From the NCBI GenBank assembly GCA_963786955.1, contig CAWBAT010000006.1:1024001-1088000 (forward strand): a stretch of DNA of 64,000 nucleotides, read 5' to 3'. This document shows positions 11,851 through 50,323 of the stretch, piece after piece. Both the position numbers and the translations under genes were made by a program. The notes under the pieces are model-generated. The model saw only the letters and a program-made list of their open reading frames with translations, was not told the origin of the DNA and searched no databases. Every line of letters begins with the position of its first letter. Positions within the stretch are counted from its first letter, which is position 1. The stretch is from an uncultured Acidimicrobiia bacterium (GTDB taxonomy: Bacteria > Acidobacteriota > Terriglobia > Versatilivoradales > Versatilivoraceae).

Positions 11851-11879
11851 GGTTAGCTCCTTACAGCTGGCGACCTCTT

Positions 11880-11916
11880 ATTCCCCTGACCCTCTCCCCG
11901 TCGGGGCGAGGGGAAA
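11880..11916. repeat. Palindromic hairpin between atpD and atpC
   Basis: ttcccctgaccctctccccgtcggggcgaggggaa; same family as 46838-46900. Confidence 0.5.
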
Positions 11917-11918
11917 GC

Positions 11919-13324
<1,406 letters not shown>

Positions 13325-13338
13325 GGTGCACTCTTTCG

Positions 13339-14213: not shown

Positions 14214-14239
14214 AACTCACCGTCAGCGCATTCCAGCTT

Positions 14240-15801: not shown

Positions 15802-15898
15802 CTCTCGTTACCCTCAATTGTTCGCGTTATCCACCCCCTGTGATCCCCTCTTTTCCAAGTGGGACTTGAGGTGGTATTCCTTCCCTTTGCGCTCTGAT

Positions 15899-16292
15899 TC
15901 AAAAGCCTTTCTCCAGCGCCGCCAGCCTGGCCTGCACGCTGCCGTCATACACATCGCATCCCACCTGAATCCGCATCCCGCCAATCAACTCCGGGCGCTG
16001 GGTGAACGCGGTGGTCAACCCCGGCCCGTACCGGTGCGTCAACCCGGCTTGGACGCATCGCCTGCAAATCGGCTGGCAACGGGGTGGCGCTCTCGATGGT
16101 GGCCGTGTGCTGGGCGCGGTCGAGTTTCACCAGCCGCAGAAAATGCGCGAGGATGGCCGGGCCGTGCCGATCACCGGTCGCGAGGACGCGTTGCACGACT
16201 CGCCGGACACGGTTCTCGTCGAGCAGGCCGTTCACCAGACAAAGGCGGAACAGTTGCTTGGCTTCGCGTTTCGCTTGTTTGGTGATCTTCAT
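15899..16292 (-). CDS. atpH: ATP synthase delta subunit, short form (frameshifted)
   Basis: MKITKQAKREAKQLFRLC...ATIESATPL then GGMRIQVGCDVYDGSVQARLAALEKGF*; lies between atpF and atpA. Confidence 0.85.
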
Positions 16293-16294
16293 CG

Positions 16295-16840
16295 TTACGC
16301 CGTGATCTGTTTGGCGGTTTCCTCGGCCAGGCGCCGCTGGTCTTCCGCGGTCAGAATCTTGCCGGTGACCGTGGTGGTGGCCTGCACCACCAGCTTGCCG
16401 ACCTCGCGTTTGAGTTCGGCGAGCATGCGGTCGTGGTCCTGCGCGGCGGCTTCGCGCGCCTTGGCCATGATCTGTTCGGCGGCGGCGATGGCCTTCTTGG
16501 TTTCCTGCTGCTGCACGCGGGCCGCCGCAGCCCGGGCTTCCTCGATGAATTTGGTCGCCTGAGCGTGGGCCTGCGCCATCACTTCCTGGCGCTGGGCTTC
16601 GGTTTTGTCCAACTCCGCTTTGATTTTCTCGGCGTTGGCGATGCCTTGCGCGATTTGTTCGCGCCGCTGTTCCAGCATCGCGAGGATGGGCCGGTAGGCG
16701 AACTTGTAGAGGACGGCGCACACGATGCAGAAGCTGATGATCTGGGCAACCAGATGCGGCCAGTCCACGCCGAAGGTCCGGGCGATCTGCTCGACCTGCC
16801 CGCCACTGTCTGCTTCAGCCAGCAAGACCAGAGCATTCAT
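16295..16840 (-). CDS. atpF: Fo subunit b
   Basis: FGVDWPHLVAQIISFCIV..LYKFAYRPILAMLEQRR followed by coiled coil; intact. Confidence 0.93.
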   Translation of the reverse strand: MNALVLLAEADSGGQVEQIARTFGVDWPHLVAQIISFCIVCAVLYKFAYRPILAMLEQRREQIAQGIANAEKIKAELDKTEAQRQEVMAQAHAQATKFIEEARAAAARVQQQETKKAIAAAEQIMAKAREAAAQDHDRMLAELKREVGKLVVQATTTVTGKILTAEDQRRLAEETAKQITA

Positions 16841-16901
16841 AATTGCACACTCGTAGAGTTGGGGCGACCGCCAGCGTTGGCTCTGCGCCCCACGGTTTAT
16901 C

Positions 16902-17108
16902 CTATTTCACCAGGAACAGGGCGTAGAACACGATCGCTTCAGCGAAGGCAATGGCCAGAATCGACTGGACCATAATCTTCGTGGACGCGCCGGGATTCCG
17001 TCCCACCGCGGTCTGAAGCTCCCATGCCGATCAAGCCCACGCCGATGGCCGCGCCCAGCGCCGCCAGACCAACGTGGATGTTTCCGCTCAACTCCATCCA
17101 AGGGTCAT
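16902..17108 (-). CDS. atpE: Fo subunit c (frameshifted)
   Basis: Reconstructed SGNIHVGLAALGAAIGVGLIG..AVGRNPGASTKIMVQSILAIAFAEAIVFYALFLVK*. Confidence 0.88.
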
Positions 17109-17177
17109 CTCTACCTTTCTTTGCTTTCTCGCCGGCTCCCGCGATTGAACACGGTCAAGCCGCCGAAAGTTCATCAT

Positions 17178-18167
17178 TCAATTGTGTTCCGCCGCCGGTG
17201 CTGCTTCCTCGTGCTGACACATCAGCAGCGTGAAGACAGCGCACAACAACATGAACACCAGCGCCTGCACCAAGCCCACCAGCAGCTCCATGAAATAAAA
17301 CGGAATCGGCAACAACCAGCCGAGGCCCGGGCACCATCCGGGACATGGTTTCCAGCATGGTCTCCCCGGCAAAGATGTTGCCGTAGAGTCGAAAACTCAG
17401 GGAGACCGGCCGAAACAGAATCGAGACGATTTCCAGGCAGCCGGCCGCGAAGAACACGACGATCATCAGCACTTTCATAACCCCGGCCGTCTCGCCCTTG
17501 GGCGCGAACAGCTCTTTGAGAAATCCGACCGGGCCGACTTCCCGCAAGCGCCCAGACGATCCAGCAGGCGAAGAAAGACGAGGCCATGGCGAACGTCAGG
17601 TTCAGATCGGCATTCGCCCCGCGAAACAGCGGTTGATCGATCACGAAACCGTGCGAGGTCTGATGTCCCCACCCGATCGTGCCGACCCCGGGAATCAGGC
17701 CGAACCAATTTGCCGCTCAGAATGAAAATGAAAATGGTGGCAAAGAACCAGAACGTCCGCTTGACCAGATGCGGGCCGATGATGCTTTCCAGAAAGCCGT
17801 AAAGACCCTCGACGAGCCATTCCAGGAGGTTCTGCGCCCCGCCGGGAACATGCTTCATGTCCCGCGTCGCAACTCTGGCGAAGAGGATCAAGCCGATCGC
17901 CACAATCCAACTGACCACCATCGAATTGGTGATCGGTAGATTGAAGACGTGAGCGACTTCCTCAGCTTTTTGCGAAAGGTGGTGTTCCTCCTCTTCAGCT
18001 GTTGCCAAAGGCGCGCCGCCCTGTTCAGTGATGAGCTTGCCGGCCGCAGCATTGGCGGTCTTCGCTGAGGCGACCTGCGATTCGGCCGCGTACATCAAGC
18101 CGGCGCTCAGACACATGAAGATGGCGGCAAAAATAAGCAGGGCTAATTTAGTTTTGGGGGCGAGCAT
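17178..18167 (-). CDS. atpB: Fo subunit a (frameshifted) with N-terminal signal-like extension
   Basis: PITNSMVVSW, PGGAQNLLEW, RGANADLNLT, RPVSLSFRLYGNIFAGE, ELLVGLVQALVF across 4 frames. Confidence 0.9.
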
Positions 18168-18469
18168 AATCTCTGCACATTGTGCCACCGGTGCCTCGCA
18201 TTGAAAAGGTCAACAAGCCAAATGGTTCTGTATATACCATCGCTTGTCAACAATAATTCCCCTTGGGTAAACCCACCGCTCAACCGAGGGACTCCGGAAG
18301 TTTGGCAACTCCGGGGGGAAGAAAGCAAGTCTCTCAACCGTGAACCGCACAAAGTTACACGGATCGGCAGAGAATTGCAGCTTGTCATGGCCGCTACGGA
18401 AAAGAAACGGCAAATATAGGTAGGTTCCCCATGCGGAAAGCGCGCTAACGGAACGCTTGAAAACTTTCT

Positions 18470-25913: not shown

Positions 25914-26647
25914 CTGACAAAGCTAGGCTCATTGCGCAAAGAGGCGGTGTCTGGATCGCTGATCAGCCAGCGGTAATTTCTATCCATTGTGTTGTTCCTG
26001 ACCGACTCGAAACGAGCTACCGAGCGCTAAAATAGCTTGCGTTAAATCCACCAGCTATTGGGTAATGCACGCGGCAAATCCCCACCTGCTCGAACAGACA
26101 TCTGGTCAGATCGTAAGTTAGGTCTTGAAGTTTCACCCCACTGAGGGGAAAAGGGTCAGCTGCTTCAGGATTGGCATGAAGTTTGCTATTGAGTGGAGTG
26201 AGGTATTGTCTCCAGCCGCTCACTTCATGGACGGGATCGCACCAGACGGAATGCGAGCAACGAGATGAAGAAAGCAGGGGTGGAAGTGCCTACATCGGAG
26301 ACGAGAGTCATTGAGAAGAAAACTTAGTTGTTTCAATGGCCTTGACTTTCGGGTGGGCCGATCATTGCTCTGTGCTTTTTTTGGCGGACAGAGGGGCTCA
26401 AACGATCGCCATCAATCCAGACCGACTCATGACTTCCAGGTCAAGATGCTGCCTAGTCCACTCATTCGCTTGGATCTGAATTTGTTGCTTTATGTTACTC
26501 ACCGTGAGGAACCATTGCACCTCGGTTCCTCACTCCCAAGGGATCTAGAGTCCCCGTAAGGTCTATCTGCTAAAAGAGCATTTCAAAATACGGTTGCTAT
26601 CATGAGCGCCAAGGCAAGGTCGGTTTAGTAAGGAGAAAGGAGGATTT

Positions 26648-29949: not shown

Positions 29950-31443
29950 ATGACGCGTCATCTTTTTTCCTTGCTGGCCGGCGTTATCGGCCTGCTCATG
30001 ATCCCAAGCGTTATTGCCCAACAAACATTCCGGGTGGAAAAGGACCTGCTGGGAGAGAAGCAGATTCCAGCGGATGCCTACTACGGCGTCCAGACCGCGC
30101 GGGCCCTCGAGAATTTTGAAATCTCCGGCGTTCTGATCAATCACTATCCCGGGTTCGTCGAAGCTTGGGCCATCGTCAAATTAGCGGCAGCAAGGGCCAA
30201 CACAGACGTCGGCGCCATGAAACCGGAAACATTAGCTGCCATTGAAAAAGCCTGCCAGGCCGTGCTTGACGGCAAATACCATGATCAGTTCCGGGTAGAT
30301 TGGTACCAGGGCGGAGCCGGAACTTCGACCAACATGAATGCCAACGAGGTGCTCGCGAATATCGCACTAGAGCTCAGCGGGCACAAGAAGGGCGAGTATC
30401 AGTTGGTTGATCCGCACGATCATCTCAATATGTCACAGTCAACCAACGACTCCTACCCCACGGCGATCAAGGTTGCATTTCTTTTGCGGAACAACAAGCT
30501 GATCGAGGAACTGCAGAAGCTGGCGGCTTCTTTTCGGAGGAAAGGGGACGCTTACCTCAAGATCGTGAAGATGGGAAGGACCGAGATGCAGGACGCCGTG
30601 CCCATGACCGTCGGTCAAGAATTTCATGCATTTGCGTCCGCTCTGGAAGGTGAAATCCAGTTGCTGCGGGATGCTGAGAAGTATTTATACTCGGTGAACA
30701 TGGGCGCCACCGCCATTGGAACCGGAATCAACGTCCCCAAAGGATACCCGGAAAAATGCGCGGCCCACCTGGCTAAGTTGACCGGCAAACCCATCGTGCC
30801 GGCCTCTGACATGATTGCTGCCACCTGGGATCAGCAGGGGTTTGTAGTCTATTCCGCGGCGCTCAAGAGCTTGGCCATAAAGCTCTCGAAGATTGCGAGT
30901 GATTTGATCCTGCTCACTTCTGGACCCCGAGCGGGACTGTTCGAGATCAACTTGCCCGCGTTGCAGCCGGGTTCCTCCATCATGCCGGGCAAAGTCAATC
31001 CGGTCCTTCCTGAGCTGATGAATATTGTTGCTTTTCGCGTCATGGGCAATGACTACAGCGTCGGGCTGGCCGCCGACCACGGACAACTCCAGCTCAATGC
31101 CTATGAGCCGCTCGAAGGGCTGGCAGTGATCGAATCACAGAGTCTGCTCTATCGCACTTCCATCGCTTTTCGGACCAAGTGCATCGATGGCATTACCGTG
31201 AACGAAAAAACATTGCAGCACTATATGGAGACCACTGTCGGCATCGTCACGGCGCTCAATCCTATCGTGGGCTATGAAAAAGCAACGGAGCTGGCCGGCG
31301 AAGCTTACAAGAGCGGAAAAGGAATTCTCGAAATCATCCGGGAAAAGAAGGTTCTGTCCGAACAACAAATCCAGGAGTTGCTCGATCCGGTTAAGCTGAC
31401 CGGGCTCGACCCTTCGATGTACGAAAAGAAACCGTCCCAGTAA
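29950..31443 (+). CDS. aspA: Aspartate ammonia-lyase with N-terminal signal peptide
   Basis: RVEKDLLG, YYGVQTARA, QGGAGTSTNMNANEV, GSSIMPGKVNP; GGAGG RBS before MTRHLFSLLAGVIGLLMIPSVIA|QQ. Confidence 0.92.
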   Translation: MTRHLFSLLAGVIGLLMIPSVIAQQTFRVEKDLLGEKQIPADAYYGVQTARALENFEISGVLINHYPGFVEAWAIVKLAAARANTDVGAMKPETLAAIEKACQAVLDGKYHDQFRVDWYQGGAGTSTNMNANEVLANIALELSGHKKGEYQLVDPHDHLNMSQSTNDSYPTAIKVAFLLRNNKLIEELQKLAASFRRKGDAYLKIVKMGRTEMQDAVPMTVGQEFHAFASALEGEIQLLRDAEKYLYSVNMGATAIGTGINVPKGYPEKCAAHLAKLTGKPIVPASDMIAATWDQQGFVVYSAALKSLAIKLSKIASDLILLTSGPRAGLFEINLPALQPGSSIMPGKVNPVLPELMNIVAFRVMGNDYSVGLAADHGQLQLNAYEPLEGLAVIESQSLLYRTSIAFRTKCIDGITVNEKTLQHYMETTVGIVTALNPIVGYEKATELAGEAYKSGKGILEIIREKKVLSEQQIQELLDPVKLTGLDPSMYEKKPSQ

Positions 31444-31459
31444 TACAGGAGGTATTATC

Positions 31460-32524
31460 ATGAAACGCAGGTTCCAACCGTTATGGGGAGTTCTCCTCAC
31501 TACTCTTCTCACCGTCTCCGCGCTCGCTGCGGACAAGCTTCCAACTGTCGTCGTTCTCGCGACTGGGGGCACCATCGCCGGAGCGGCAGCGAGCGATGTT
31601 CAGGCGTCCTACACCTCCGGCCAAGTGGGTGTCGAGCAGCTTCTCGCCGCCGTGCCTCAGACGAAGAAGCTCGCTATGCTGCGGGGAGAGCAGATCTCGA
31701 ACATCGGCTCGCAGGACATGAATGACGAAGTCTGGCTGAAGCTGGCCCGCCGCGTTAACGAGCTTACCGCCATGCCGGATGTGGATGGTGTCGTCATCAC
31801 CCACGGCACTGACACCATCGAAGAGACCGCTTATTTCTTAAATCTCGTCGTCAAGTCGAAAAAACCTGTCGTCCTGACCGCGGCCATGCGCCCATCGACA
31901 GCCCTTTCGGCTGACGGCCCGCTCAACTTCTTCAATGCTGTGGCCGTGGCAGCTAACAAGGATGCAGCAGGCCGTGGCGTGCTGGTGGTGGTCAACGACT
32001 GGATCCACGGCGCCGCCTCTCTCACCAAGACCAGCACCACAGCCGTGCAGACGTTTCTCTCCCCGGTGCGGGGCCTCATCGGCACAGTTGCTTACGGCGA
32101 GATCGAGTTCTATCGTGGTCCCGTGGGCCGAAGCACCACGGACTCAGAGTTCTCGCTGGACGGGGTAACGGCCCTGCCCCGCGTGGACATCATCATGGCC
32201 TACGAGAATATGGATGGAAAACTCATCGAGGCCGCAGTTGCGATTGGGGCGAAGGGAATCGTGATCGCTGGTGTAGGCAACGGCAATATGACGGAGGCAG
32301 CCCTCAACGCACTCGCCGCACAGTCGAAGAAAGGCATCGTCTGCGTGCGTTCTTCGCGTGTGACCACAGGCCGGGTGGGACGTAAGGTTGAAGTAGACGA
32401 CGACAAATTGGGTCTGGTTGCCTCCGAAGGCTTGAATCCCCAGAAGGCGCGGGTGCTACTCCGACTCGCTCTTCTGAAGCCGCGCAGCTTGGACGACATT
32501 CAGCGGATCTTTCAGGAGTACTAA
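31460..32524 (+). CDS. ansB: Type II (secreted) L-asparaginase/glutaminase-asparaginase
   Basis: Signal peptide ALA|AD, ATGGTIAG, HGTDTIEE, SADGP, LNPQKAR. Confidence 0.93.
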   Translation: MKRRFQPLWGVLLTTLLTVSALAADKLPTVVVLATGGTIAGAAASDVQASYTSGQVGVEQLLAAVPQTKKLAMLRGEQISNIGSQDMNDEVWLKLARRVNELTAMPDVDGVVITHGTDTIEETAYFLNLVVKSKKPVVLTAAMRPSTALSADGPLNFFNAVAVAANKDAAGRGVLVVVNDWIHGAASLTKTSTTAVQTFLSPVRGLIGTVAYGEIEFYRGPVGRSTTDSEFSLDGVTALPRVDIIMAYENMDGKLIEAAVAIGAKGIVIAGVGNGNMTEAALNALAAQSKKGIVCVRSSRVTTGRVGRKVEVDDDKLGLVASEGLNPQKARVLLRLALLKPRSLDDIQRIFQEY

Positions 32525-32756
32525 GATGACTCAGCCAAGGGAAATTGGCCAGTTGGAGCCACGCCTCGCTTCGTTCAGCGTGGCTCCCAGGCGTGTAAGA
32601 AGCAGTGAGTCGATAGTCCTGAATATCGTGTAATCTTTGGTAACCACGGTGAGTGCTTTTGCGAGCCGTGGGCTTTTCACCAGTGAGTTGAACTCGCTCG
32701 TTTTTGAAACGGCAGCAATGCAATGGAATAGATTTGGTTCGAAAGGAGAAGGCAAA

Positions 32757-34407
32757 ATGGAAAAAGGATTGAAGGTCATCAGTAGCGTTGAAAGTAGCTG
32801 TGGGAGTTGTAACACGTCGGGCTGTGCGACATGTGCGCCCGCGCCGGTCAAAACTGCGAGCAAGACTTTGTTGAGCCGGAGGGATCTTGGACTTGCCGCC
32901 TTCGCTTCGGCTGCTGCCACGGTTTTTGCCAGCTGCTCCGGTGCACAACCGCCTCAGCAAACGGCCGAAAAAAGCACCCCCCCTGCTACTCCCGCTCCAA
33001 GCGCGTCTAGCCTGTCTCCGGAACTTGACGTGGTCCAAAGGTCGAAGGGAAACATCATGACAGTGCTCGATGAATTTTACAAAATGGGGCCAGGGCCGTC
33101 GAGTTCGCATACCATGGGTCCGATGCGAATCACTTATGATTTCTTTCAGCGAGTATCCAAGCTCCCGGAAGATCAGCTCAAGCGGGCCACCGCGCTTAAG
33201 GTCCACCTCTATGGCAGCCTCAGCGCTACGGGGAAAGGCCATGGCACCGACCGGGCTTCGCTCGCCGGACTATTGGGCAAGGCGCCGGCCACGTGCCCTC
33301 CCGAGTTCCTGGACGGATTGGCCGCCAATCCCGATCAAACGTACAAGGTCATCATAGGTCCGGCGACCCTTAACCTGTCACTGAAAGACATCATCTTCGA
33401 TGCTCCCAAAGGTGAATTTCACCATCCGAACACGATGACCGCGAAGCTGCTCGCCGGCAAACGAGACACTTTACGAGCTGGAATACTACTCGGTTGGCGG
33501 AGGCTTCATCGAGTGGAAGGGCTACAAGCCGCCGGACAAAGGGCAGCCCAAGTACTCATTCTCACACGCCAAGGATTTGAAAAAGTATCTCTTCGACGAC
33601 AAGATCCTCCTTCCGACATTGCTGCTGGAAAATGAAATGGCTATCTCCGGCAAGAGCGAGAAACAGATCTGGGAATTTCTCGACCAAGTTGCCGAAGTCA
33701 TGGTCCGCGGTGTGGACACCGGGCTCAAAGTCGAAAGTGTTCTCCCCGGCCCCATCCAGTTACACAGCAAGGCCGCTTCAATTTATCGTAACTTGAAGAA
33801 CTCCAACAAAGGAGAAGCTGGCCGTGCCATCACCAAGGTAGCCGCATACGGATTTGCCATGGGCGAGGAAAACGCTCGCGGCCATATCATCGTGACCGCA
33901 CCCACCGCCGGGTCCGCGGGAATTCTGCCGGCAGTCCTCAGGTCCCTTCGGGACCTCAATGTGCCGACTCAGAAGATCCGGGAAGGTTTCCTGGCGGCAG
34001 CGGCAATCGGTTACCTTTGCAAACACAACGCCACTCTGTCCGGCGCTGAAGGCGGCTGCCAGGCGGAGGTTGGAGTCGGCTCCTCGATGGCTGCCGCGAT
34101 GATCGCCCAGGCTTTGGGCGCCAGTCCCAAGGTGGTTTCGAATGCTGCCGAATCGGCCCTTGAACACCACCTCGGCATGACATGTGATCCGGTAGCCGGC
34201 TACGTTCAGGTGCCTTGCATCGAGCGCTGCGCCTATGGGGCGGTTAAGGCATGGACCGCCTATTGCATCGCCAGCGAAGAGATTCCCGAACAACGGCGCG
34301 TGGATCTCGACACCACGATTGCGGCCATGGCCATGACTGCCAAGGACATGAATGCCAAGTACAAAGAGACGTCCGAAGCAGGCTTGGCCGCGTTAGTCCT
34401 TTGTTAG
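32757..34407 (+). CDS. sdaA: Fe-S L-serine ammonia-lyase with Tat-lipoprotein-like leader (one frameshift at ~33460)
   Basis: GPGPSSSHTMGP, LYGSLSATGKGHGTD, YYSVGGG (shifted frame), APTAGSAG, GGCQAEVG, MTCDPVAGYVQVPCIERC; leader LSRRDLGLAAFASAAATVFASC. Confidence 0.9.
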
Positions 34408-34474
34408 AATAGGATATGAGACGAACCTAAGTAGATAACACAAACTAATGCGCCAGATTCTTTAACTTCAATCT

Positions 34475-34575
34475 CATTACCCCCGTGCTTCAGCACGGGG
34501 GTAAAAGAGCCCCTCGCTCCCGCCCCCTGTCGAGCCAGCGGCGCAATGCACAGCACCGCTGGCTCGACAGGGGGA
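34475..34575. repeat. Paired hairpins (REP/terminator-like) after sdaA
   Basis: tacccccgtgcttcagcacgggggta; cccctgtcgagccagcgg...ccgctggctcgacagggg. Confidence 0.55.
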
Positions 34576-34671
34576 AGAAAAAAGCCAATCGATGTCCCCG
34601 AGCTAAAGCGCTGGGCTAATGAATTCTGAGGATTGCTTTTTGAAGGTTACTTTAGCCTGATAGTGAACAAA

Positions 34672-35904
34672 ATGAGTAACCGCACGAAAACGGCCGTTGT
34701 CGCCTGGCTTTTGGCAGCCGTGTATTACTTCTATCAATACACGCTCCGCTCTGCACCTGCCGTCATGATGCCGCAGTTGTCCGAGGCATTTGGGCTCAGT
34801 GCACTCGGTGTAGCCTCCATGGTGGGCTTGTTCTACTACGGGTATTCACCGTTTAGCTTGATCGCTGGTGCCGCTATGGATCGTCTCGGGCCGCGGAAGG
34901 TGATCCCGATTGGTGCCGCGGCGGTTGGCATCGGCGCACTCTTGTTCGGTATGGGCAACCAGGCTGCAGCGAGCACAGGAAGGTTTCTGCAAGGCGCGGG
35001 CGGTGTTTTCGCGCTGGTGGGGGCCGTTTCCATTGCCAGTAAGAATTTTCCGGCCTCCCGTGCCGCAACTTTGATTGGGGCAACGCAAATGTTCGGTATG
35101 GCCGGGGGATCGGCCGGCCAGTCAGTGGTCGGGCCAATGATCGCCGGTGGACTCGCCTGGAATCACTTTTGGGTTGGGATGGGCATCACCGGCTTGCTGA
35201 TCAGTGTTCTTCTTTTTATGTTTCTTCCGCGGCAGGAGCAAACAGTCCGAAGTGGCTGGCTGAAGAGCGCAGCTGGAGCTTTAGGCTCCGTTTTCAAAAA
35301 CCCGCAGTCGATCCTTTGCGGCCTGATCGCAGGGCTGCTCTTTATTCCGACGACGATCTTCGACATGATCTGGGGCGTCCGTTTCCTTCAGGAAGCACAC
35401 GGTTTTGACTATGCATCGGCGGTGATGCGTTCGTCAATGGTACCTCTCGGGTGGATCATCGGTTGTCCGCTGCTGGGTCTGCTCTCAGATCGGATCGGGC
35501 GTAGGAAACCGGTGATTATCGGAGGGGCGATCGTTCTTTTAGCGTGTCTCGCCTGGGCGCTCTATGGCAGCCCCAACATCTTCCCTCCTTACGTCATCGG
35601 CTTGGCAGCGGGACTCGGGTCAGGCGCGGCGATGCTGCCGTACACGGTGATTAAGGAAGCGAACCCTCCGGAGTTCAGCGGCACAGCCACCGGGGTGGTC
35701 AATTTTCTGAATTTCACCTTCAGCGCACTGCTGGGGCCGGTGTTTGGACGGATTCTCCAGAAGGTATCGGGCGGGGCCTCGCAAATGACGCTGGAGCATT
35801 ACCAGGCTGGATTTGAGCCGCTTCTGTATGGTGTGGCCATTGCTATTGTGCTCACTTTTCTTTTGAAAGAGACAGGGCCGGCATGTCAAAAAAACGTCTC
35901 ATGA
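34672..35904 (+). CDS. MFS transporter
   Basis: Hydrophobic multi-TM protein, GAAMDRLGPRK and GLLSDRIGRRK motif A copies. Confidence 0.9.
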   Translation: MSNRTKTAVVAWLLAAVYYFYQYTLRSAPAVMMPQLSEAFGLSALGVASMVGLFYYGYSPFSLIAGAAMDRLGPRKVIPIGAAAVGIGALLFGMGNQAAASTGRFLQGAGGVFALVGAVSIASKNFPASRAATLIGATQMFGMAGGSAGQSVVGPMIAGGLAWNHFWVGMGITGLLISVLLFMFLPRQEQTVRSGWLKSAAGALGSVFKNPQSILCGLIAGLLFIPTTIFDMIWGVRFLQEAHGFDYASAVMRSSMVPLGWIIGCPLLGLLSDRIGRRKPVIIGGAIVLLACLAWALYGSPNIFPPYVIGLAAGLGSGAAMLPYTVIKEANPPEFSGTATGVVNFLNFTFSALLGPVFGRILQKVSGGASQMTLEHYQAGFEPLLYGVAIAIVLTFLLKETGPACQKNVS

Positions 35905-35959
35905 CGCTGTGCGGCGCCACGTTCCATGAAAATGAGTCCCCTCCTCTAGAGGGGTGCAG

Positions 35960-36062
35960 GGGTGGGTTGCCGCGAGCCGGAAAGACCCACCCCTGAAGGC
36001 TAAAGCCTTCTTTCCCCTCCCAAGAGGGGATTCCAAGGAGAAAAGGATATGAATCGCAAGCC
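35960..36062 (+). repeat. 103-bp direct repeat, copy 1
   Basis: gggtgggttgccgcgagccgg...aaggagaaaaggatatgaatcgcaagcc identical to 36656-36758. Confidence 0.9.
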
Positions 36063-36179
36063 AGGATACCGGTCATTCTCACCAGCCGGGCGAACAGCGT
36101 CCAGGCCGGCACGGCTGGCTGCGCCGTGGGGATGCTTGCGGTTCATCCGAAACGTCAAGGAATAGTGAGGGAGAGCTGA
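36063..36179 (+). pseudogene. C-terminal remnant of phosphate acetyl/butyryltransferase
   Basis: RIPVILTSRANSVQAGTAGCAVGMLAV resembles the Pta/Ptb C-terminal consensus GARVPIILTSRADS. Confidence 0.65.
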
Positions 36180-36182
36180 AGC

Positions 36183-36260
36183 ATGTCTGACAAACGTCCT
36201 ATGACAATCGACGGTAACGAGGCCGCGGCCTCAGTGGCCTACTTCAGAACGATTCAATAG
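36183..36260 (+). pseudogene. N-terminal remnant of pyruvate:ferredoxin/flavodoxin oxidoreductase
   Basis: MSDKRPMTIDGNEAAASVAY followed by a stop 5 codons later; matches the NifJ/PFOR start motif DGNEAAA-VAY. Confidence 0.7.
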
Positions 36261-36283
36261 TTTCGCAATTGAAAGGAGAAGTT

Positions 36284-36574
36284 ATGAACGGGAACAGGCT
36301 TATCCTTGCTTGTGGGCTTCTGCTTTGCCTCGTGGGAATTTCTTGTGAGAAGAATCAGATGCCAGTGCGTCCTGAACTAAAGTTGAGTTTTGAGGCAATC
36401 AAAACCCAAAATTCTATCCCTGCGGAGTATGGAGAACTGGAAGGGGTTGTCGCAGATTCGCCAAACTTCGCAAGGATGTTTTTTGAAAAGGAAGACAAGA
36501 GTATTATTGTCGTCACCGTCAATGTGGTCGACGGATTCCTTCAAGATCGTGTCCTCGTTATTCCACGCAAGTAG
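36284..36574 (+). CDS. Small hypothetical lipoprotein
   Basis: AAAGGAG RBS; MNGNRLILACGLLLCLVGIS|C lipobox-like. Confidence 0.7.
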   Translation: MNGNRLILACGLLLCLVGISCEKNQMPVRPELKLSFEAIKTQNSIPAEYGELEGVVADSPNFARMFFEKEDKSIIVVTVNVVDGFLQDRVLVIPRK

Positions 36575-36655
36575 TAGACCAATGGGGCCGCTTCCAGACA
36601 GCTTTCACCGCGTCCGGAATGATGGATGTGTGGATAGGATCTGCCAAGAGTCCAC

Positions 36656-36758
36656 GGGTGGGTTGCCGCGAGCCGGAAAGACCCACCCCTGAAGGCTAAA
36701 GCCTTCTTTCCCCTCCCAAGAGGGGATTCCAAGGAGAAAAGGATATGAATCGCAAGCC
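36656..36758 (+). repeat. 103-bp direct repeat, copy 2
   Basis: Identical to 35960-36062. Confidence 0.9.
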
Positions 36759-36790
36759 CGGAACTGCAAAAAACGAAAGGCTGTGACTCA

Positions 36791-37975
36791 ATGGATGATT
36801 ATGCTCTGGTACTCAATGCCGGATCATCGAGCTTGAAATTCTGTGTCTATCGGCGATCAGAGGGTGAAAGTTGGCGTCTGGAAGCTCGAGGACAAATCGA
36901 AGGCATCGGAACATCGCCCCGGTTATCTGCCAAAGATGCTGCGGGCGCAAGCCTCGCTGATCAGACCTTGGATGCGACCGTACGTGATGGGCGTCGGGCG
37001 CTGGATGCTCTGGCCGGCTGGCTTCGCTCCAGGTATGGCGGCAGCCGAGTCCTGGGTGTCGGGCATCGCGTGGTTCATGGCGGAGCGCTGCACGCCCGAC
37101 CCACCGTTGTAAGCCGAGAAGTTCTGGCGGAGTTGCACCAACTGATTCCTCTGGCTCCATTACACCAGCCTCATAATCTGGCAGCCATTGAAGCGGTTTT
37201 CGAGCGACTGCCCGACGTACCGCAAGTCGCTTGTTTCGACACGAGCTTTCATCGCGGTCATTCGGCCGTTGCGGATCTGGTACCGCTACCACGCGACCTT
37301 TGTCAATCAGGACTGCAGCGCTACGGTTTCCATGGACTATCCTACGAATACATCGCTTCAGTTTTGCCACAGGTTGCGCCGGAGATCGCCCAGGGACGAG
37401 TGATCGTCGCCCATCTGGGAAGCGGCGCCAGTTTGTGCGCCCTCAAGGACGGGAAAAGCATTGATAGCACTCTTAGCTTCACAGCTCTCGATGGGCTCTG
37501 CATGGGAACCAGGCCGGGCACAGTCGATCCTGGCGTCATTCTGTATCTTTTTCAAAACCTGGGACTCTCTGCCAAGCAAGTGGAGGATATCCTCTACAAG
37601 AAATCGGGATTGCTGGGCATTTCCGGCATCAGTAACGACATGCGTGATCTGCTTTCCAGCAGTGAACCTGGAGCCCGCCTGGCCGTGGACTACTTCGTAT
37701 ACCGTGCTGCTAAAGAGATCGGCGCCCTCGCCGCTGTGTTGGGCGGCATCGATGGACTGGTGTTCACCGCGGGCATTGGAGAGAACTCAGCTGAACTCCG
37801 CCGGCGCATCTGTGAATCGTCTGCTTGGCTGGGTGTGGAGTTCGACGCAGAAGCCAACGCCCGCAAAGGTCCGCGAATCTCGCACCCGGGCAGCAAGGTC
37901 TCGGCTTGGGTGATCCCGACCAACGAAGAGTTGATGATCGCCCGGCATACCGGGCGGCTGCTGGGATTGATATAA
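36791..37975 (+). CDS. ackA: Acetate/propionate kinase
   Basis: LNAGSSSLKF, GHRVVHGG, APLHQP, RYGFHGLSY, FTAGIGEN, IPTNEE. Confidence 0.95.
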   Translation: MDDYALVLNAGSSSLKFCVYRRSEGESWRLEARGQIEGIGTSPRLSAKDAAGASLADQTLDATVRDGRRALDALAGWLRSRYGGSRVLGVGHRVVHGGALHARPTVVSREVLAELHQLIPLAPLHQPHNLAAIEAVFERLPDVPQVACFDTSFHRGHSAVADLVPLPRDLCQSGLQRYGFHGLSYEYIASVLPQVAPEIAQGRVIVAHLGSGASLCALKDGKSIDSTLSFTALDGLCMGTRPGTVDPGVILYLFQNLGLSAKQVEDILYKKSGLLGISGISNDMRDLLSSSEPGARLAVDYFVYRAAKEIGALAAVLGGIDGLVFTAGIGENSAELRRRICESSAWLGVEFDAEANARKGPRISHPGSKVSAWVIPTNEELMIARHTGRLLGLI

Positions 37976-38204: not shown

Positions 38205-40464
38205 ATGAGCACTACTACAAAGATGACCTCAGAAGGAGTGATGCTGGCCTGGCGGTGCTTTCAGCCAGGCCTATGGCAGAAAGAAATCAACGTTCGCGAT
38301 TTCATCCAGCAGAACTACACGCCCTACGAGGGAGACGACTCCTTCCTTGCGCCCCCGACGGAGCGCACCACGAAGATCTGGAATCATTTGAAGGAACTGT
38401 TTGTGGAGGAGCGCAGAAAAGGGGTCCTCGACGTCTCCGTAATTCCAAGTTCCATTACCGCGCACGGACCGGGCTACATTGATCGCGAGAATGAAGTCAT
38501 CGTCGGTCTTCAGACCGAGGCGCCGCTCAAACGCGCCATTATGCCCAATGGTGGATTTCGCATGGTTGTCAACGCCCTCAAAGCGTACGGCTACAAGCCC
38601 GATCCGCACGTTGTTGAGACATTCACCAAATATCGCAAGACGCACAACGAGGCCGTGTTCGATGCCTACACGGCAGACGTCAGGCGGTGTCGCAGCTCGC
38701 ACATCCTCACTGGCCTGCCCGACGCTTACGGGCGCGGCCGCATCATTGGCGACTACCGCCGCGTGGCCCTTTACGGGGTCTCCCGGCTCATTGAACGGAA
38801 ACAGCAGGAAAAACTCAGCCTCGATGCAGCCATGTCAACGGAAGAGATTATCCGCGACCGGGAAGAACTCAGCGAGCAGACCCGGGCGCTCAAAGAACTG
38901 CAGCAGATGGCCGCCAGTTACGGATTCGATATCTCGTTGCCGGCCAGCAATGCCCGAGAAGCCGTCCAGTGGCTTTACTTTGGCTATCTGGCGGCCGTGA
39001 AAGAACAGAACGGCGCCGCCATGTCTTTAGGCCGGACGTCGAGTTTCCTCGACATCTACTTTGAACGGGACCTTGCGGCTGGCACGATCACCGAGGCCGA
39101 GGCCCAGGAGATCGTCGATGATTTCGTGATTAAACTGCGCATCGTTCGCTTTTTGCGCACACCGGAATACGATGACCTTTTCGCCGGCGATCCTACTTGG
39201 GTCACCGAGTCGATTGGCGGCATGGGAGACGACGGCCGGACGCTGGTAACGAAAACGAGCTTTCGCTTTCTCCAGACCCTCTACAACCTCGGCCCTGCCC
39301 CGGAGCCGAATCTGACCATCTGGTATTCCCCGCGTCTTCCCGATGGCTTTCGGCATTTCTCCGCCAAAGTCGCGATCGACACGAGTTCCCTTCAATTCGA
39401 AAACGACGAAATCATGCGCCGCGCTTGGGGCGACGACGGAGCGATCGCCTGCTGTGTGTCTCCGATGCTGGTCGGCAAGCAGATGCAGTTTTTCGGCGCC
39501 AGGGCCAATCTCGCCAAGTGTCTGCTTTACGCCATCAATGGCGGGCGGGACGAAATCAGTGGAAAACAGGTGGCCCCCAACTTTGGAGGAGTCCAAGGCG
39601 AAATCCTCGAATTCGATGACGTGAGGGAGAAGTTCGAGAAGATGATGGATTGGCTTGCCAAATGTGTACGTCAATGCCATGAACATCATTCACTTCATGC
39701 ATGACAAGTACGCCTATGAACGCATCGAAATGGCATTGCACGACTACGCCCCGCTGCGGACGATGGCGTTCGGCATCGCAGGCCTGTCCGTCGTGGCCGA
39801 CAGCCTGTCGGCGATCCGAGACGCAAGAGTGCGTGTGCTGCGGGACGAGACCGGGCTCGTGACCGGCTATCAGACCGAAGGTGATTTCCCCAAGTTCGGC
39901 AACAACGACAATCGCGTTGACCACCTCGCTACCTGGGCAGTGAGCACCTTCATGAGCAAGTTGAGGAAGTACCCCACTTATCGAAATGCGCTGCACACCC
40001 AATCGGTCCTGACAATCACTTCGAACGTCGTGTACGGAAAAAACACTGGCGATACTCCAGACGGGCGGCATCGCGGGGAACCCTTTGCTCCAGGTGCGAA
40101 TCCAATGCATGGTCGGGATCAACATGGCATCCACGCATCGGCGGCATCGGTTGCGAAGATCCCGTATCGTGATGCTGCTGACGGAATCTCGTATACCGTG
40201 TCGATGGTGCCGCAAGGCCTTGGAAGAGTCGCGGAGGACCGGATAACCAATCTGACAAGCATGCTCGATGCATTCTTTGGCAGCACCGGCTATCACATGA
40301 ACGTGAACGTGTTTAATCGCGAGACACTTCTGGACGCGATGGATCATCCCGAAAAGTACCCGCACCTGACGATTCGCGTGTCCGGCTATGCAGTCAATTT
40401 CGTGCGATTGACTCGAGAACAACAATTGGATGTGATCAATCGCACCTTCCACGGATCCGTGTAA
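38205..40464 (+). CDS. pflB: Pyruvate formate-lyase (one frameshift at ~39660)
   Basis: [56 protein letters not shown] glycyl radical loop. Confidence 0.95.
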
Positions 40465-40465
40465 C

Positions 40466-41311
40466 ATGAGTGATAGCCCGCAGGTACAGCCAGTTTCTTT
40501 GGAGGCGAAGAGTCCCTTCGAACTTCGCGTCAACCTGGGCCAGCATGTTCCGGAGACCGACGTCCGAACGGCACTCGCCACTGGAGATATGGGCTTCGTT
40601 CACTCGTTTACCACAGGGTCGACTTGGATGGACCCGGAGTGCGTGTGGTGGCCTGGCTCACCGGCTGCCAGTTTCGCTGCCTCTACTGCCACAATCCCGA
40701 TACCTGGAGAATGACGAACGGAGTTCCAGTCACCCTGGAAAGGGCGAAAGCCCAACTCGGCGAAGTACCGCCACGGGCTTAAGGTCATGAAGGGTGGGCT
40801 CACCGTGAGCGGTGGCGAACCCTTGATGCAAGACCGGTTTGTCGTCAAGCTATTCACTGCTGCGCAAGCCATGGGAATTCATACGGCTCTCGACAGCAAC
40901 GGATACTTGGGCAGTCGCCTTACCGATGAGGATCTGGAGAAGATTGACCTGGTACTGCTGGACATTAAGGCCTGGGACCCAGAGCGGCATCACCGGCTGA
41001 CCGGCATGGACCCGGGTCCAGTGTTTGAGTTTGCGCGCCGTCTGGCAATCCGCCAAAAACCTGTCTGGCTGCGCTACGTGCTGGTGGCTGGGTTGACGGA
41101 CGACCCGGAAGAAATCGCCCATATTGCCGACTTCACTGCCAACCTGGGTAACGTGGAACGGGTCGATGTATTACCCTTTCATCAGATGGGCGCATTCAAG
41201 TGGAAGCAGCTCGGCATCGAATATAAACTTCAGGATGCGGAACCACCATCAAAGGAAACCCTCGATAATGTATGCGCTCAGTTCCGGTCGGCAGGGCTCA
41301 AGGTCTACTGA
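40466..41311 (+). CDS. pflA: PFL-activating radical SAM enzyme (frameshifted)
   Basis: [27 protein letters not shown] (read manually), [18 protein letters not shown]. Confidence 0.92.
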
Positions 41312-43536: not shown

Positions 43537-46500
43537 CTAATGACTGACTTCGGGACCCCCGGGAGTTAGACCCTCTGCGCCTGTACCTTCTGTGGATATT
43601 CCGCCCTCAGGCTTCGCGCCTTCGTGCTTTGCCCCGCCGAGTTTTTCAATGACGTAGAATAGAGCAGGGATGATGAAGATAGCGATGGCACTGGCGGCTG
43701 TCATACCGCCAATCACAGCACTGCCCATTACCTGACGGGAGATTGCCCCCGCCCCGGTAGCCCTCCAGAGCGGTACACAGCCCAAGATAAACGCGAACGA
43801 GGTCATCAGTATGGGACGGAGACGGAGTTTGGCCCCTTCCAATGCAGCATCCGCTAGTGGTCTACCCTTCTCGAATTCCGCTTTGGCAAACTCCACAATC
43901 AAGATGGCGTTTTTGGCGGCAAGTCCAATCAGCATGATGAGGCCGATTTGTGCATAGACGTTATTCTCGAAGGACAAACTTTCGAACCGGCGCCAATACA
44001 GCGTCCCCAACGCGCCAAAAACGGCAACGGGCGTGCTCAACAGCACGCTGAAGGGCAGCGTCCAGCTTTCGTACAACGCCGCCAGGATGAGAAAAACAAA
44101 CAAGACGGATAATCCGAAAATGACGGAAGGCGGCACGCCTTGTTGCGCCTTCTGTTCCTGATAGGACATGCCCATATAGTCGAAACCCATTTCTCGCGGC
44201 ATGGTCTGGGCAAATACTTCCTCAAGGACCTTCATGGCTTGAGCGGAACTATAGCCGGTGGCGGCGCTGCCATTGATCTGCGCGGCTTGATACATGTTGT
44301 AATGCATCGTGTACTCAGGACCTAGCCGCGGTTCTAGCGACACGACCGTAGAGAGCGGGACCATTTGACCGGAGGTGTTGCGCACATAAAAGCGGCCCAC
44401 ATTTTCGGCCTGCGTTCGGAAATCCCCTTCGGCCTGAACGTAAACCTGCCAGGTGCGTCCGAAACGGTTGAAGAAGTTAATAAATGCCCCGCCCATGAAG
44501 GCCTGCACCGTTTTGTAAACATCGCCGATGTCCAGGCCTTGTTTGAGCACTTTGTCACGATCCACGTTGACATAGAGCTGCGGGACAGCCGGCAAGGCCA
44601 CGGTGAAAACGCCGGAGAGCTCAGGTCGCTTGCGCAACTCAGCCAAGAACTTGGTCAGGTTTTGGGCGAGGAATTGAACACCCTGTCCGGACCGGTCCTC
44701 AAGGACGAAAGTAAAGCCTCCCGAGGTCCCCACACCGGGGATCGCGGGTGGCGGAAAGGCGACCGCATTGCCGCCTGCAATTTGCTTCAGCCCAGTGCTC
44801 ATGTGGGCTTTGATGGCTGAATACTGCTCTTCGGGGGCCTTGCGTTCGCTCCACTCCTTCAGGGTAACCCAGAAAAAGGAACTGTACGTATTCTGCACAC
44901 TGCTCAGCATGTTGTAACCGATCACGCTCGTCACGTGGGCGACACCGGGGGTGTTCCTGAGTGACTTCTTCGACTTGGCTCGCCAAGGCATCGGTGCGCT
45001 GCAAGTGAAGAGGCATCTGGAAGTTGCAAGGCAACGTAGACGTAGCCCTGGTCTTCATCGGGCAGGAAGCTAGTGGGCAGCTTCATACCAAACCAGCCAG
45101 CCAGAGCGGTGAAGCCGAGCAGCAAAATGATCATGATGCCCATTTTGTGAATCAGCGCGCCGCACCAACTCACATAGCCGTCTGTCGCCTTACCAAAGAC
45201 GCGGTTAAACCAGCGGAAGAAAGCTCCTAGCGGGCCGCGGGACTCCTTTTTGGGACGAAGCAGCAAGGCGCCAAGTGCTGGGCTGAGAGTGAGTGCATTG
45301 AAGGCCGAAATGACGACGGACACTGCAATGGTTACCGCGAACTGTTGATAGAGGCGCCCTGTGATGCCCGGGAATAAACGCGGTAGGAATGAATACTGCA
45401 GACAAGGACGATGGCGATGCCCACCACTGGCGCGGAGACCTCCTCCATGGCTTTAAAGGCCGCATCTTTCGGTGAAAGTCCGTGCTCGATGTGGTGTTCT
45501 ATCGCCTCGACCACCACAATAGCATCATCGACGACTAGCCCAATGGCCAACACCAGGCCAAACAGCGAAAGTGTGTTGATCGAGAACCCAAGGAGCGGAA
45601 AAATCATGAATGTGCCGACCAGCGACACAGGCACAGCTAACAGCGGGATCAAGGTTGCTCGCCAGCCTTGCAGGAAGATAAAGACGACGAGGATCACGAG
45701 GACCAAGCGCTTCAATAGCGTATGCTCAATTTCAACAATGCCCTCTGTGACCGGGAGGGTCGTGTCCAGAGCAATGGCGTACTCAAGGCCCGGCGGGAAG
45801 CGTTCTTTCAACTTCTCCATCAATTTCTTAGCCCCATCGGCCGCCGCGACGGCGTTGGATCCGGGAAGTTGGTAAATCGCTACGATCGCCGCTGGCTTGC
45901 TGTCCAGGCGGCCACGCAGGTTATACACTTGGGAACCGAGATTGACCCGAGCCACATCCTTGAGCCGCACCAGCGAACCATCGGGATTGGCGCGGACGAC
46001 GATGGCGCCAAACTGCTCTTCTGTAGAAAGGCGGCCCTGGGCAATGACAGCGTAAGTGTACTGCTGCCCGTCTGGCACCGGTTCACCACCGATAGTTCCC
46101 GCTGGATTCACGGTGTTCTGCATTTTAACGGCGTTGATGATCTCAGGCACAGTAATCTGCAGCTTGGCTAGCTGGTCCGGATCGACCCAAAAACGCATCG
46201 CGTATTGGCCGGCGCCGAAAACCGATACGCTCGCAATCCCATAGGAGCGGGTAAAGTTATCGACGAGATTGATGTAAGCATAATTGGCCAGGAATTGGGC
46301 GTCGTACCGACCATCTGGAGCATAGAGGTCGAACAACATCAGAGGGGCAGCTGTGGACTTCTGGACAACGACGCCTTGGGCATTCACTTCAGGCGGAAGT
46401 TGCGAGGCTGCCTGTGACTGGCGCATCTGGGCAAGAATCAGGTCGGTGTTGGGGTCGGTCTTCACATCGAAATCCACCGTCAAGTTCCCCAAGCCGCTGT

Positions 46501-46750
46501 TCTGATTGAGGGAATACATGTAGTTCATGTTGTCCACGCCGCTCATCTTCTGTTCAATCGGCGTGGCCACAGACTGGTCCACCGTTAGGGCATCGGCACC
46601 AGGGTAGGTGGCATTGATCTGGATCTGAGGGTCAGCGATGTTGGGGAATTGGGCAGTGGGTAAGCTGACGATTGCAAGGCCGCCAACGATGACCATGACG
46701 ATGGAAATCACCATGGCAACGATGGGGCGGTTGATGAAGAATTTAGACAT
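43537..46750 (-). CDS. RND efflux permease, HAE1 family (frameshifted)
   Basis: [55 protein letters not shown] over 3 or more frames. Confidence 0.92.
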
Positions 46751-46837
46751 AATCGGTATTAATACAGTCCTACACTAGAATTCCGATTCTCGATTACTAA
46801 TTGACAGCTAGTGAAACGCATTAAATATTGTGGCAGT

Positions 46838-49310: not shown

Positions 49311-49757
49311 TTACCATAAATAACGCGCATCATACTCAATCCCGCTTCTGTTCAAAAACTCCACGTATTCCTCCTGAAAGGTTTTCTTACGGTGATGCGC
49401 TTTCTGTTCTCGAATATATTTCCGAACTGCCTCGATCAGGGACGGACTAACGGTAAACCCACCGTACCCAGTCTGCCATGCAAACTTGCTGGAGCCGATC
49501 TCGTCATGAACCCATTTAGACGATGCGCCTTTAATATCCTCTAACACATTGGCCAAGCAATGCGTGGGCCGAAGACCGATTAGAAGGTGCACATGGTCAG
49601 CCGTGCCATTGATCTCAACTGGCACCCCTCCAGCACGACGGACCAATCCGCCCAGGTATGCGTGCAAGCGGTGTTGCCACTCTTTGGCGATCAATGGATA
49701 ACGATTCTTGGTGCTAAAAATCAAATGGAAATGCAAACTGGAATGTGTCGAGGGCAT
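49311..49757 (-). mobile_element. tnpA: IS200/IS605-family (Y1, HUH) transposase TnpA, possibly REP-associated
   Basis: HLIFSTKNR, DHVHLL (HUH), FAWQTGYGGF, YIREQ catalytic Tyr, HHRKKTFQEE; no tnpB. Confidence 0.9.
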
Positions 49758-49817
49758 GGATCGCTCCTTCACCCCTGCCGGGGCGGCACGTAAAAATACG
49801 CAACGAATAACCAACCT

Positions 49818-50323
49818 GGGGCGTCACTTCGCTTTGCCCCAGGCTACCATCCAATGCCCCCTCCGGGGTAATTCACAAAAATAACGAACAAAAGGGGCGC
49901 CGCTTCGCTTTGCCCAGGCTACCATCCAATGCCCCCTCCGGGGTAATTCACAAAAATAACGAACAAAAGGGGCGCCGCTTCGCTTTGCCCCAGGCTACCA
50001 TCCAATGCCCCCTCCGGGGTAATTCACAAAAATAACGAACAAAAGGGGCGCCGCTTCGCTTTGCCCCAGGCTACCATCCAATGCCCCCTCCGGGGTAATT
50101 CACAAAAATAACGAACAAAAGGGGCGCCGCTTCGCTTTGCCCCAGGCTACCATCCAATGCCCCCTCCGGGGTAATTCACAAAAATAACGAACAAAAGGGG
50201 CGCCGCTTCGCTTTGCCCCAGGCTACCATCCAATGCCCCCTCCGGGGTAATTCACAAAAATAACGAACAAAAGGGGCGTCGCTTCGCTTTGCCCCAGGCT
50301 AATCTCCGACGCCCCTTCAGGGC
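49818..50323 (+). repeat. Tandem array of a 76-bp unit: 6 full copies + 1 partial
   Basis: Unit ggggcgccgcttcgctttgccccaggctaccatccaatgccccctccggggtaattcacaaaaataacgaacaaaa starting at 49818, 49894, 49969, 50045, 50121, 50197, 50273. Confidence 0.95.

Follow-up and report, generated by a model that had tools for sequence, protein, structure and literature searches.

Why does the gene for an iron-sulfur (Fe-S) L-serine dehydratase begin with a cysteine-rich pre-leader, a twin arginine (RR) and a lipobox, and does its product leave the cytoplasm? The question is posed by the sdaA gene at 32757..34407 (+ strand) of a 64,000-nt stretch of contig CAWBAT010000006.1, referred to here as the window, to which all coordinates refer; the source genome, G000, is a 5.65 Mb assembly that is 93% complete. 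A preliminary description had read from the letters a ribosome-binding site, a CxxC-x4-CxxC motif, the RR, a hydrophobic stretch, the tetrapeptide FASC, a Pro/Ser linker and an SdaA core, and each of these is present in the sequence. The locus probably codes for an L-serine dehydratase of type 2 (single-chain, [4Fe-4S]), made as one precursor of 549 residues, interrupted in the assembly by an indel and destined for export. It represents a real and conserved variant of a known enzyme that apparently has not been described: in the titles, abstracts or passages of the literature consulted (supplements being outside its scope), neither an exported serine dehydratase nor a cysteine-rich n-region of a twin-arginine translocation (Tat) signal is reported.

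The identity of the enzyme follows from two domains. SDH_beta (PF03315, E 8e-32) lies in the first frame and SDH_alpha (PF03313, E 1e-70) in the +1 frame at 33460-34407; both stand on one chain in all 11 intact metagenome homologues. One of these, P0001, is 96.4% identical to the two pieces of the window gene and scores 412.4 bits against TIGR00720 (sda_mono; cut-off 345.1), a score that belongs to P0001 and not to the broken frames of the window joined together. P0001 also aligns with the type 2 L-serine dehydratase of Legionella pneumophila (PDB 4RQO, E 5e-85), sharing its fused beta-alpha architecture, the motif G-P-G-P-S-S-S-H-T, the aligned cysteines and the C-terminal cysteine. In the window, the beta domain begins at M101, the ancestral start position, and occupies 33057..33458 in frame 1 (the 4RQO alignment of this domain begins at residue 103), while the remainder of the beta domain and the alpha domain follow in frame 2 (33460..34407), ending in a stop codon at 34405-34407. 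The conserved cysteines of 4RQO have counterparts in cysteine codons at 34057, 34183 and 34216, and a C-terminal cysteine is encoded at 34402. The corresponding columns (G-G-C-Q, M-T-C-D-P, V-P-C-I-E and the last residue) are invariant, cytoplasmic paralogues included, in the 76 covering rows of 77 aligned. Following the roles reported in the 4RQO work, these residues are taken to be the three cluster ligands and the C-terminal cysteine. L-serine deaminase activity is predicted for the window enzyme, and no second SDH_alpha gene was found in the 5.65 Mb genome besides the window copy.

Type 2 single-chain [4Fe-4S] L-serine dehydratases include SdaA, SdaB and TdcG of Escherichia coli. Unlike these and the L. 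pneumophila enzyme, the window enzyme carries a 100-residue N-terminal leader composed of a cysteine knot, the RR, a lipobox and a linker, and its identity to cytoplasmic paralogues in related genomes is 38-45%. Its clade also differs from them in two extra conserved cysteines near the cluster region. These lie in G-Y-L-C-K-H-N and C-I-E-R-C (34021-34023 and 34228-34230 by alignment position); they are conserved in all members of the exported clade, and Tyr and Asn take their places in the two cytoplasmic paralogues compared. The pair could supply a fourth ligand or stabilize a periplasmic Fe-S enzyme, and may be related to life outside the cytoplasm. The cysteines of the leader and those of the mature domain do not co-vary, as leaderless members share the cysteine set of members with the four-cysteine knot.

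The leader itself is organized in a strict order, all on the + strand. Direct reading of the sequence places a strong Shine-Dalgarno (SD)-like AAAGGAGAAGG at 32742-32752, 4 nt upstream of the ATG at 32757. The first 14 residues (32757..32798), of the type M-E-K-x-L-K-V-I by sequence and alignment A3, lead into the knot C-x2-C-x4-C-x2-C (32799..32834; Cys residues 15, 18, 23 and 26). A 14-residue Pro/Ala/Lys spacer (32835..32876) separates the fourth cysteine from R41 and R42 (32877..32882, context S-R-R-D-L-G), which are invariant in alignments A2 and A3, neither of which had its rows chosen for the RR. There follow a hydrophobic, Ala-rich h-region (32883..32924), the lipobox-like F-A-S-C (residues 57-60, 32925..32936), whose Cys60 is predicted to be the lipidated first residue, and a Pro/Ser/Ala-rich linker (32937..33056) that ends in the clade-specific motif L-S-P-E-L-D-V-V-Q-x-S-K-G. 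The Tat consensus is S/T-R-R-x-F-L-K; the window's S-R-R-D-L-G-L matches S/T-R-R at the boundary of the n- and h-regions and leaves the L-K part unmatched, and the context in relatives is mostly S-R-R-[DEQ]-[FL]-G-[RKH] (alignment A3).

Conservation of this arrangement among homologues, which the preliminary description had proposed as one check on its reading, is extensive. When longer proteins were searched with leader residues 1-100, 11 were found, all of them intact (545-550 aa) and equipped with both dehydratase domains; the four cysteines, the RR and a lipobox persist in all 11 even as leader identity drops from 86% to 39%. Scanning one genome per species gave at least 596 matching stretches, at least 575 of them confirmed relatives, and the best 80 loci (L009-L088) were studied. 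The enzyme had been called unusual, a term to be qualified: the literature found does not describe it, yet its exported clade has at least 575 matches in species genomes. The 80 loci come from Terriglobia and other Acidobacteriota, Bacteroidota, Binatia, Planctomycetota and Pseudomonadota (Microvirga, Vineibacter, Steroidobacter). Two isolates of Bacteroidota are among them, Algoriphagus sp. A40 with the full motif and Flavihumibacter profundi with a degenerate three-cysteine version.

The residue that follows F-Y-K divides the loci into two subclades, M/I (54 loci) and V (26 loci), both of which keep the linker motif. The four cysteines together with the RR (hereafter Cys4) occur in 44 of the 54 M/I loci, and thus in 44 of all 80. 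Cleavage sites in these 44 comprise 35 lipoboxes (by a loose pattern, mostly L-x-G-C), eight A-x-A sites and one other. Three further M/I loci combine the RR with a degenerate knot (three cysteines in L029 and in the Flavihumibacter locus L033, none in L038), so that Cys4 is found in 44 of the 47 leader-bearing members. The remaining seven are leaderless, six from Bacteroidota and one (L041) cut by a contig end. In the V subclade all 26 loci have the RR without the knot, in a classical signal of the D-R-R-A-F-[LM]-M-R type, followed by 12 lipoboxes, 13 A-x-A sites and one other.

The pattern of change within the leader points to selection on the peptide. In the 44 Cys4 loci plus the window (45 sequences), both TGT and TGC are used at each cysteine site and six Arg codons at the RR. 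The distance from the fourth cysteine to the RR is exactly 14 residues in 40 of the 45, and that from the ATG to the first cysteine exactly 14 in 37. Because the spacing is fixed while the codons vary, the constraint acts on the peptide and its register. Among 38 full-length proteins, M1, the four cysteines and the RR alone are invariant within the leader; these rows were picked for having the knot and not for the RR, which biases the invariance of the cysteines and leaves that of the RR (38/38) unbiased.

The leader is also specific to its enzyme. Searching 5.8 billion proteins (92-2000 aa) with a profile of its first 52 residues gave 42 matches at E <= 0.01, 39 with SDH domains and three that are fragments of 93-104 aa, and no family other than serine dehydratase was matched. 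The source annotations of the matched proteins read plain L-serine ammonia-lyase or dehydratase. Across a sample of 401 genomes of the window's class, strong matches (72-76 bits) are confined to the three genomes of the window genus, making the trait sparse and patchy; nine further matches of 21-24 bits look like chance. In a six-frame translation of the whole genome the Cys4-then-RR pattern occurs once, and this single occurrence, together with the fixed spacing in 45 sequences, indicates more than chance. Judged from these comparisons, the leader is real, translated and conserved.

How the leader arose is suggested by a quick maximum-likelihood tree, built from 76 mature domains with two cytoplasmic paralogues as the root. 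Lineages with only the RR lie at the base of the exported clade. The Cys4 clade (47 rows; Shimodaira-Hasegawa-like approximate likelihood-ratio test 92) has earliest branches that are all Cys4, with six leaderless and three cysteine-poor rows nested within it. The simplest reading of this tree is that a cytoplasmic enzyme acquired a Tat signal, that the knot was then gained once, and that several losses followed. The topology is at odds with taxonomy, as would be expected if the gene or its cassette had been transferred between lineages; contamination of some assembled genomes is a possible cause of the patchy taxonomy. A more distant serine dehydratase group (P0069, P0117, P0123, P0129) has an RR within its first few residues (M-D-R-R-D-F type) and a core N-terminus that resembles the cytoplasmic forms; it may represent an independent gain of a Tat signal.

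The proposed route of the protein would begin with folding and cluster insertion in the cytoplasm, after which the twin-arginine signal would target the enzyme to the Tat translocase. Signal peptidase II would then cleave at Cys60, and lipidation, which we infer for this residue, would follow. Tat-dependent lipoproteins are an accepted class, with RR signal peptides cleaved by signal peptidase II (PMC13673990, citing Gimenez 2007, Widdick 2011). The predicted precursor resembles them in the RR at the n/h boundary, the modestly hydrophobic h-region, the lipobox-like cysteine at the end of that region and the cofactor-bearing passenger. Unlike the Tat lipoproteins of that review, it has a 40-residue n-region with an invariant four-cysteine knot at fixed spacing; in the passages of the review consulted, 'cysteine' occurs once, for the lipobox residue, and 'dehydratase' never.

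What the knot does is a separate matter. As far as the sequences tell, it is restricted to the serine dehydratase family, fixed in register to the RR, and gained on a protein that was already exported. It would lie on the cytoplasmic side of the RR, 14 residues away, and be lost with the signal peptide to signal peptidase II or I, so it would have to act before or during export. The favoured role is that of a small knuckle which would bind metal or Fe-S and make export depend on the cofactor or redox state of the cell, or of a dock for a dedicated helper. Long conserved Tat n-regions are read by dedicated proofreading chaperones in the cases of TorA/TorD, NapA/NapD and the hydrogenase small subunits. 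The knot is like the TorA/NapA-type n-regions in being a conserved, family-specific extension on a cofactor enzyme that plausibly acts before export; those extensions are not known to be cysteine-rich or metal-binding. A more specific proposal, which we consider possible but doubtful, makes the knot a cofactor or redox checkpoint. It would bind an Fe-S cluster or metal and keep the Tat motif hidden unless oxygen is low and clusters can be supplied, having evolved once and spread across phyla with a serine-to-acetate cassette.

Several results give such a role no help. Pfam and NCBIfam models, metal-binding and Fe-S families among them, match nothing over residues 1-40, and NCBIfam has no match on the leader at E <= 0.1. 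AlphaFold2 (38-row alignment, mean predicted local distance difference test (pLDDT) 62) yields no fold for the knot and thus no structural support for a knuckle, a point that counts against the favoured role. In the same model, residues 41-57 form a helix of low confidence, pLDDT is below 50 for residues 1-96, and the leader is undocked on the core. A complex prediction of leader residues 1-45 with mature residues 100-549 scored 0.00 against a mark of 0.32, which is evidence neither way. Targeted neighbour searches over the 80 loci found no chaperone gene conserved beside sdaA, and an all-against-all clustering of their flanking open reading frames (ORFs) was too noisy to inform questions about neighbours.

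The deposited gene is not a single open frame, and the reading of an intact precursor depends on how this is explained. The frame shifts by +1 at an A-run (33459..33461), which gives an exact site to the frameshift that had been placed near 33460; intact relatives read L-A-G-N-E-T-L-Y across the run, so the window carries one extra A. A 22,964-nt contig of sequencing run X2, 92% identical, covers 32739-34406 with 134 substitutions and one gap only, at base 33458/9, and the same base is omitted in contigs of run X3 and of RNA library X20. Joined, the two frames align to all 549 positions of P0001, with 443 of 449 residues of the mature part identical, and 206 of the 206 invariant positions of the 38-protein alignment are kept. 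Frame-broken genes are common in this assembly. In the window there are at least 10 besides sdaA (7783-18209, 38205-41311, 43540-46774), including PPK2, AcrB (three pieces), pyruvate formate-lyase (PFL) and PflA, and the beta, gamma, alpha and a subunit genes of a second ATPase operon are split. Three 20-kb regions from other parts of the genome served as controls: there, polA is in at least four pieces, alr is in two, and dnaB and rplI are truncated; because these genes are essential, the indels are taken to be assembly-wide. The frameshift is therefore most likely an assembly indel. A recent pseudogene, part of the decay of a serine-to-acetate cassette, would account for other facts that weigh against an intact gene: the extra base stands in the deposited sequence, and the congeners G001 and G002 have frame breaks in the same gene at other sites. 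Run X1, the closest, has no coverage of 33290-33466, and no run in the sequencing-run search contains the stretch (best share 0.21, small shares being uninformative on habitat). Decay would also fit the pta gene of the same locus, where a replacement spanning several hundred bases, which cannot be an indel error, has left a C-terminal remnant, and the contrast between the main ATP synthase genes (alpha and beta, contig C5), which are intact, and the broken second operon of the window. Against it stand the single one-base extension of an A-run with no further lesion, the kept invariant residues, the contigs of three runs of relatives that lack the base, and the broken essential genes elsewhere, and we consider real inactivation of sdaA unlikely. 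The preliminary description would have been refuted by a frameshift confirmed as real, and no such confirmation was obtained.

The predicted export of the intact precursor is well supported by its sequence, and it too has evidence on the other side. Curated Tat-signal models (PF10518, TIGR01409) do not recognize the leader: there is no Pfam match at E <= 0.001, and with NCBIfam at E <= 1 the best is formate_TAT at E 0.17, these short models being insensitive. The RR at residues 41-42 is late for prediction rules, and the periplasm is a demanding place for an enzyme type whose cluster is oxygen-labile. The lipobox-like FASC is present as first noted, but its F at -3 is non-canonical and weaker than the L-x-G-C of most relatives. 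TatC (PF00902) was found in G000 neither by profile search nor by tblastn with the TatC of a congener, and the congener's tatC locus gave one 76-nt blastn match, at the TatA/B gene. This absence may well be an assembly gap, since the genome is 93% complete, but it counts against the model for this strain; two copies of TatA/B and LspA (PF01252) are found in it, and TatC is present in all 24 relatives searched, both congeners included. An uncleaved leader might instead tether the protein to the membrane or regulate it, the knot binding metal in the cytoplasm and the enzyme staying on the cytoplasmic face. This reading would agree with the missing TatC, the lack of a Tat model match, the unusually long n-region with its folded-looking knot, and the six leaderless Bacteroidota of the same subclade, which indicate that the enzyme can work in the cytoplasm. 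We think it very unlikely, as an N-in helix ahead of the enzyme would put the enzyme outside, and the RR never varies. Of the Cys4 loci 43 of 44, and of the RR-only loci 25 of 26, continue with a lipobox or A-x-A; furthermore, the signal of the sister clade is textbook, and the clusters nearest to residues 1-62 in a language model carry TAT_signal (score 0.91, a lead rather than proof). Translation might alternatively start at MTVLDEF. The leader is kept in homologues and the codon of that Met (M101, at 33057) is ATG in 54 of 72 relatives, GTG in one and a non-start codon (CTG, CTT, CTC, ATC or ACG) in 17, so the start does not simply lie there. An exported precursor accompanied by a cytoplasmic isoform from M101 would fit the alignment of M101 with the start of leaderless forms, the frequent ATG and an SD-like AAGGGA 7 nt upstream in the window. 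The K-G codons upstream, however, show no SD-like enrichment (AAG in 46/67 against 68% gene-wide, GGA plus GGG in 25/72 against 35% gene-wide), and K-G-P is also kept in leaderless forms, which points to a protein-level constraint. Codon analysis of the 72 relatives thus lends no support to selection for an internal start, and two products have only a slim chance of being made. Finally, the knot may have no metal or checkpoint role and be instead a substrate for modification like that of ribosomally synthesized and post-translationally modified peptides, or a signal released with the signal peptide. Conserved Thr/Ser between the cysteines and the departure of the knot with the signal peptide are compatible with this; yet the knot was never found apart from SdaA, the sole three matches outside SDH proteins being the short fragments, and targeted tblastn over the 80 loci found no conserved maturase-type gene, the only radical SAM gene seen being that of the PFL activase of the window. 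This alternative is extremely improbable.

The neighbouring genes fit periplasmic serine deamination that feeds pyruvate fermentation. Upstream of sdaA in the window lie genes for glutaminase A, a DcaP-like porin, a DcuA/B carrier, aspartate ammonia-lyase (AspA) and, directly adjacent at 31460-32524, a type II L-asparaginase of the AnsB type (TIGR00520, 438 bits, cut-off 314). Downstream are a major facilitator superfamily (MFS) carrier, the pta remnant, acetate kinase (AckA), PFL and its activase. The MFS gene (34672..35904, + strand; MFS_1 E 8e-38) is the conserved partner: it stands directly 3' of sdaA in 47 of the 80 loci, in both subclades and at 65-85% identity, and AckA lies downstream in 37. 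Porin, AspA and asparaginase genes occur near 14, 8 and 7 loci. The MFS protein matches NCBIfam models, organic-anion transporter subfamilies, only weakly (best a D-galactonate transporter subfamily, 81 bits against a cut-off of 395); its substrate is likely an organic anion, perhaps pyruvate.

In the proposed pathway, the membrane-tethered periplasmic enzyme would convert L-serine to pyruvate and ammonium, and the MFS carrier would import the pyruvate for the neighbouring PFL/acetate kinase route, in which it would be fermented to acetate and formate with a gain of ATP. This serine route would run beside the periplasmic asparaginase/AspA/DcuA aspartate route. It resembles the E. coli tdc operon, which serves anaerobic breakdown of threonine and serine, in clustering a serine dehydratase with a transporter, a PFL-type enzyme and an acetate-type kinase. 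It differs in that the dehydratase has an export signal, so that the transporter would be expected to carry the product rather than serine, and in that the cassette spans several phyla. The periplasmic AnsB-type asparaginase offers a second parallel, as an amino acid is deaminated outside the cytoplasm and the carbon skeleton imported afterwards. Asparaginase, in contrast, is cofactor-free and has the hydrophobic N-terminus typical of an ordinary signal peptide, whereas the need of the dehydratase for a pre-assembled Fe-S cluster would call for Tat. One feature of the window speaks against the scheme: with pta reduced to a remnant (frame 35997-36179, within 35905-36790), the downstream pathway is incomplete at this locus. 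At locus L012, a 337-aa ORF between the MFS carrier and AckA is of the phosphotransacetylase type (Pta), by sequence reading only.

Other features of these loci are recorded here. The pta gap of the window contains a small ORF (36218-36574) with a lipoprotein-type signal. A direct repeat, about 50 nt long, lies on either side of this ORF (35984-36033 and 36680-36729), and each copy matches Rfam whalefall-1 at 32.6 bits, under the gathering score of 37. Just 3' of the sdaA stop, two strong GC-rich inverted repeats (34480-34501 and 34524-34575) give sub-threshold Rfam miRNA matches (best 40.6 bits, gathering score 70) and are probably a terminator or like repetitive extragenic palindromes. A scan of 30000-37000 with Rfam (E <= 1) showed neither a riboswitch nor a leader RNA before sdaA, the matches being sub-threshold miRNA and whalefall-1 models on the hairpins and repeats. 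Sigma-70 and terminator scans gave nothing above shuffles, and a sigma-54 -24/-12 pattern with up to two mismatches has no site in 32525-32756. Across the window the sigma-54 pattern matches 82 times against 74 expected, which is chance level. One of these matches, TGGCATGAAGTTTGC at 26172-26186, has one mismatch to the pattern and is found some 460 nt ahead of the gene for the DcaP-like porin, the first of the co-directional amino acid catabolism genes. An IS200-like (Y1 transposase) ORF occupies 49314-49823 on the minus strand.

Two relatives show adjacent genes in a single frame. RidA quenches the enamine made by serine dehydratases, and in genome G036 (L005, minus strand) a RidA/YjgF-like protein with an ordinary (Sec) signal peptide lies directly upstream of a Tat-signal SdaA, the two sharing a 759-aa open frame uninterrupted by a stop codon. 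The pairing of an exported RidA with an exported SdaA is suggestive; RidA-like matches occur near three of the 80 loci only and are divergent, so the link is weak. At L064 (2129-5536), asparaginase and a Tat-signal SdaA share a 1136-residue open frame, either a read-through assembly artefact or a fusion.

The locus has consequences for how such genes are read. Annotation pipelines name the leader-bearing proteins plain L-serine ammonia-lyase, and indel-rich assemblies make intact genes look like pseudogenes; as this assembly is indel-rich throughout, its apparent pseudogenes are not to be trusted. The four-cysteine knot, conserved, family-specific and in fixed register within a signal peptide, is a concrete and mutable element for the study of Tat quality control. 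If the checkpoint proposal were true, an oxygen-labile enzyme would be exported only when able to work, and the knot would be the first metal-binding regulatory element within a Tat signal n-region. If the protein is exported, an Fe-S enzyme deaminates serine outside the cytoplasm, which raises the question of how a labile cluster ligated by three cysteines survives in the periplasm, a question on which the two extra conserved cysteines may bear. Export would likewise alter models of amino acid catabolism and ammonium release in Acidobacteriota, Bacteroidota and other soil and sediment bacteria.

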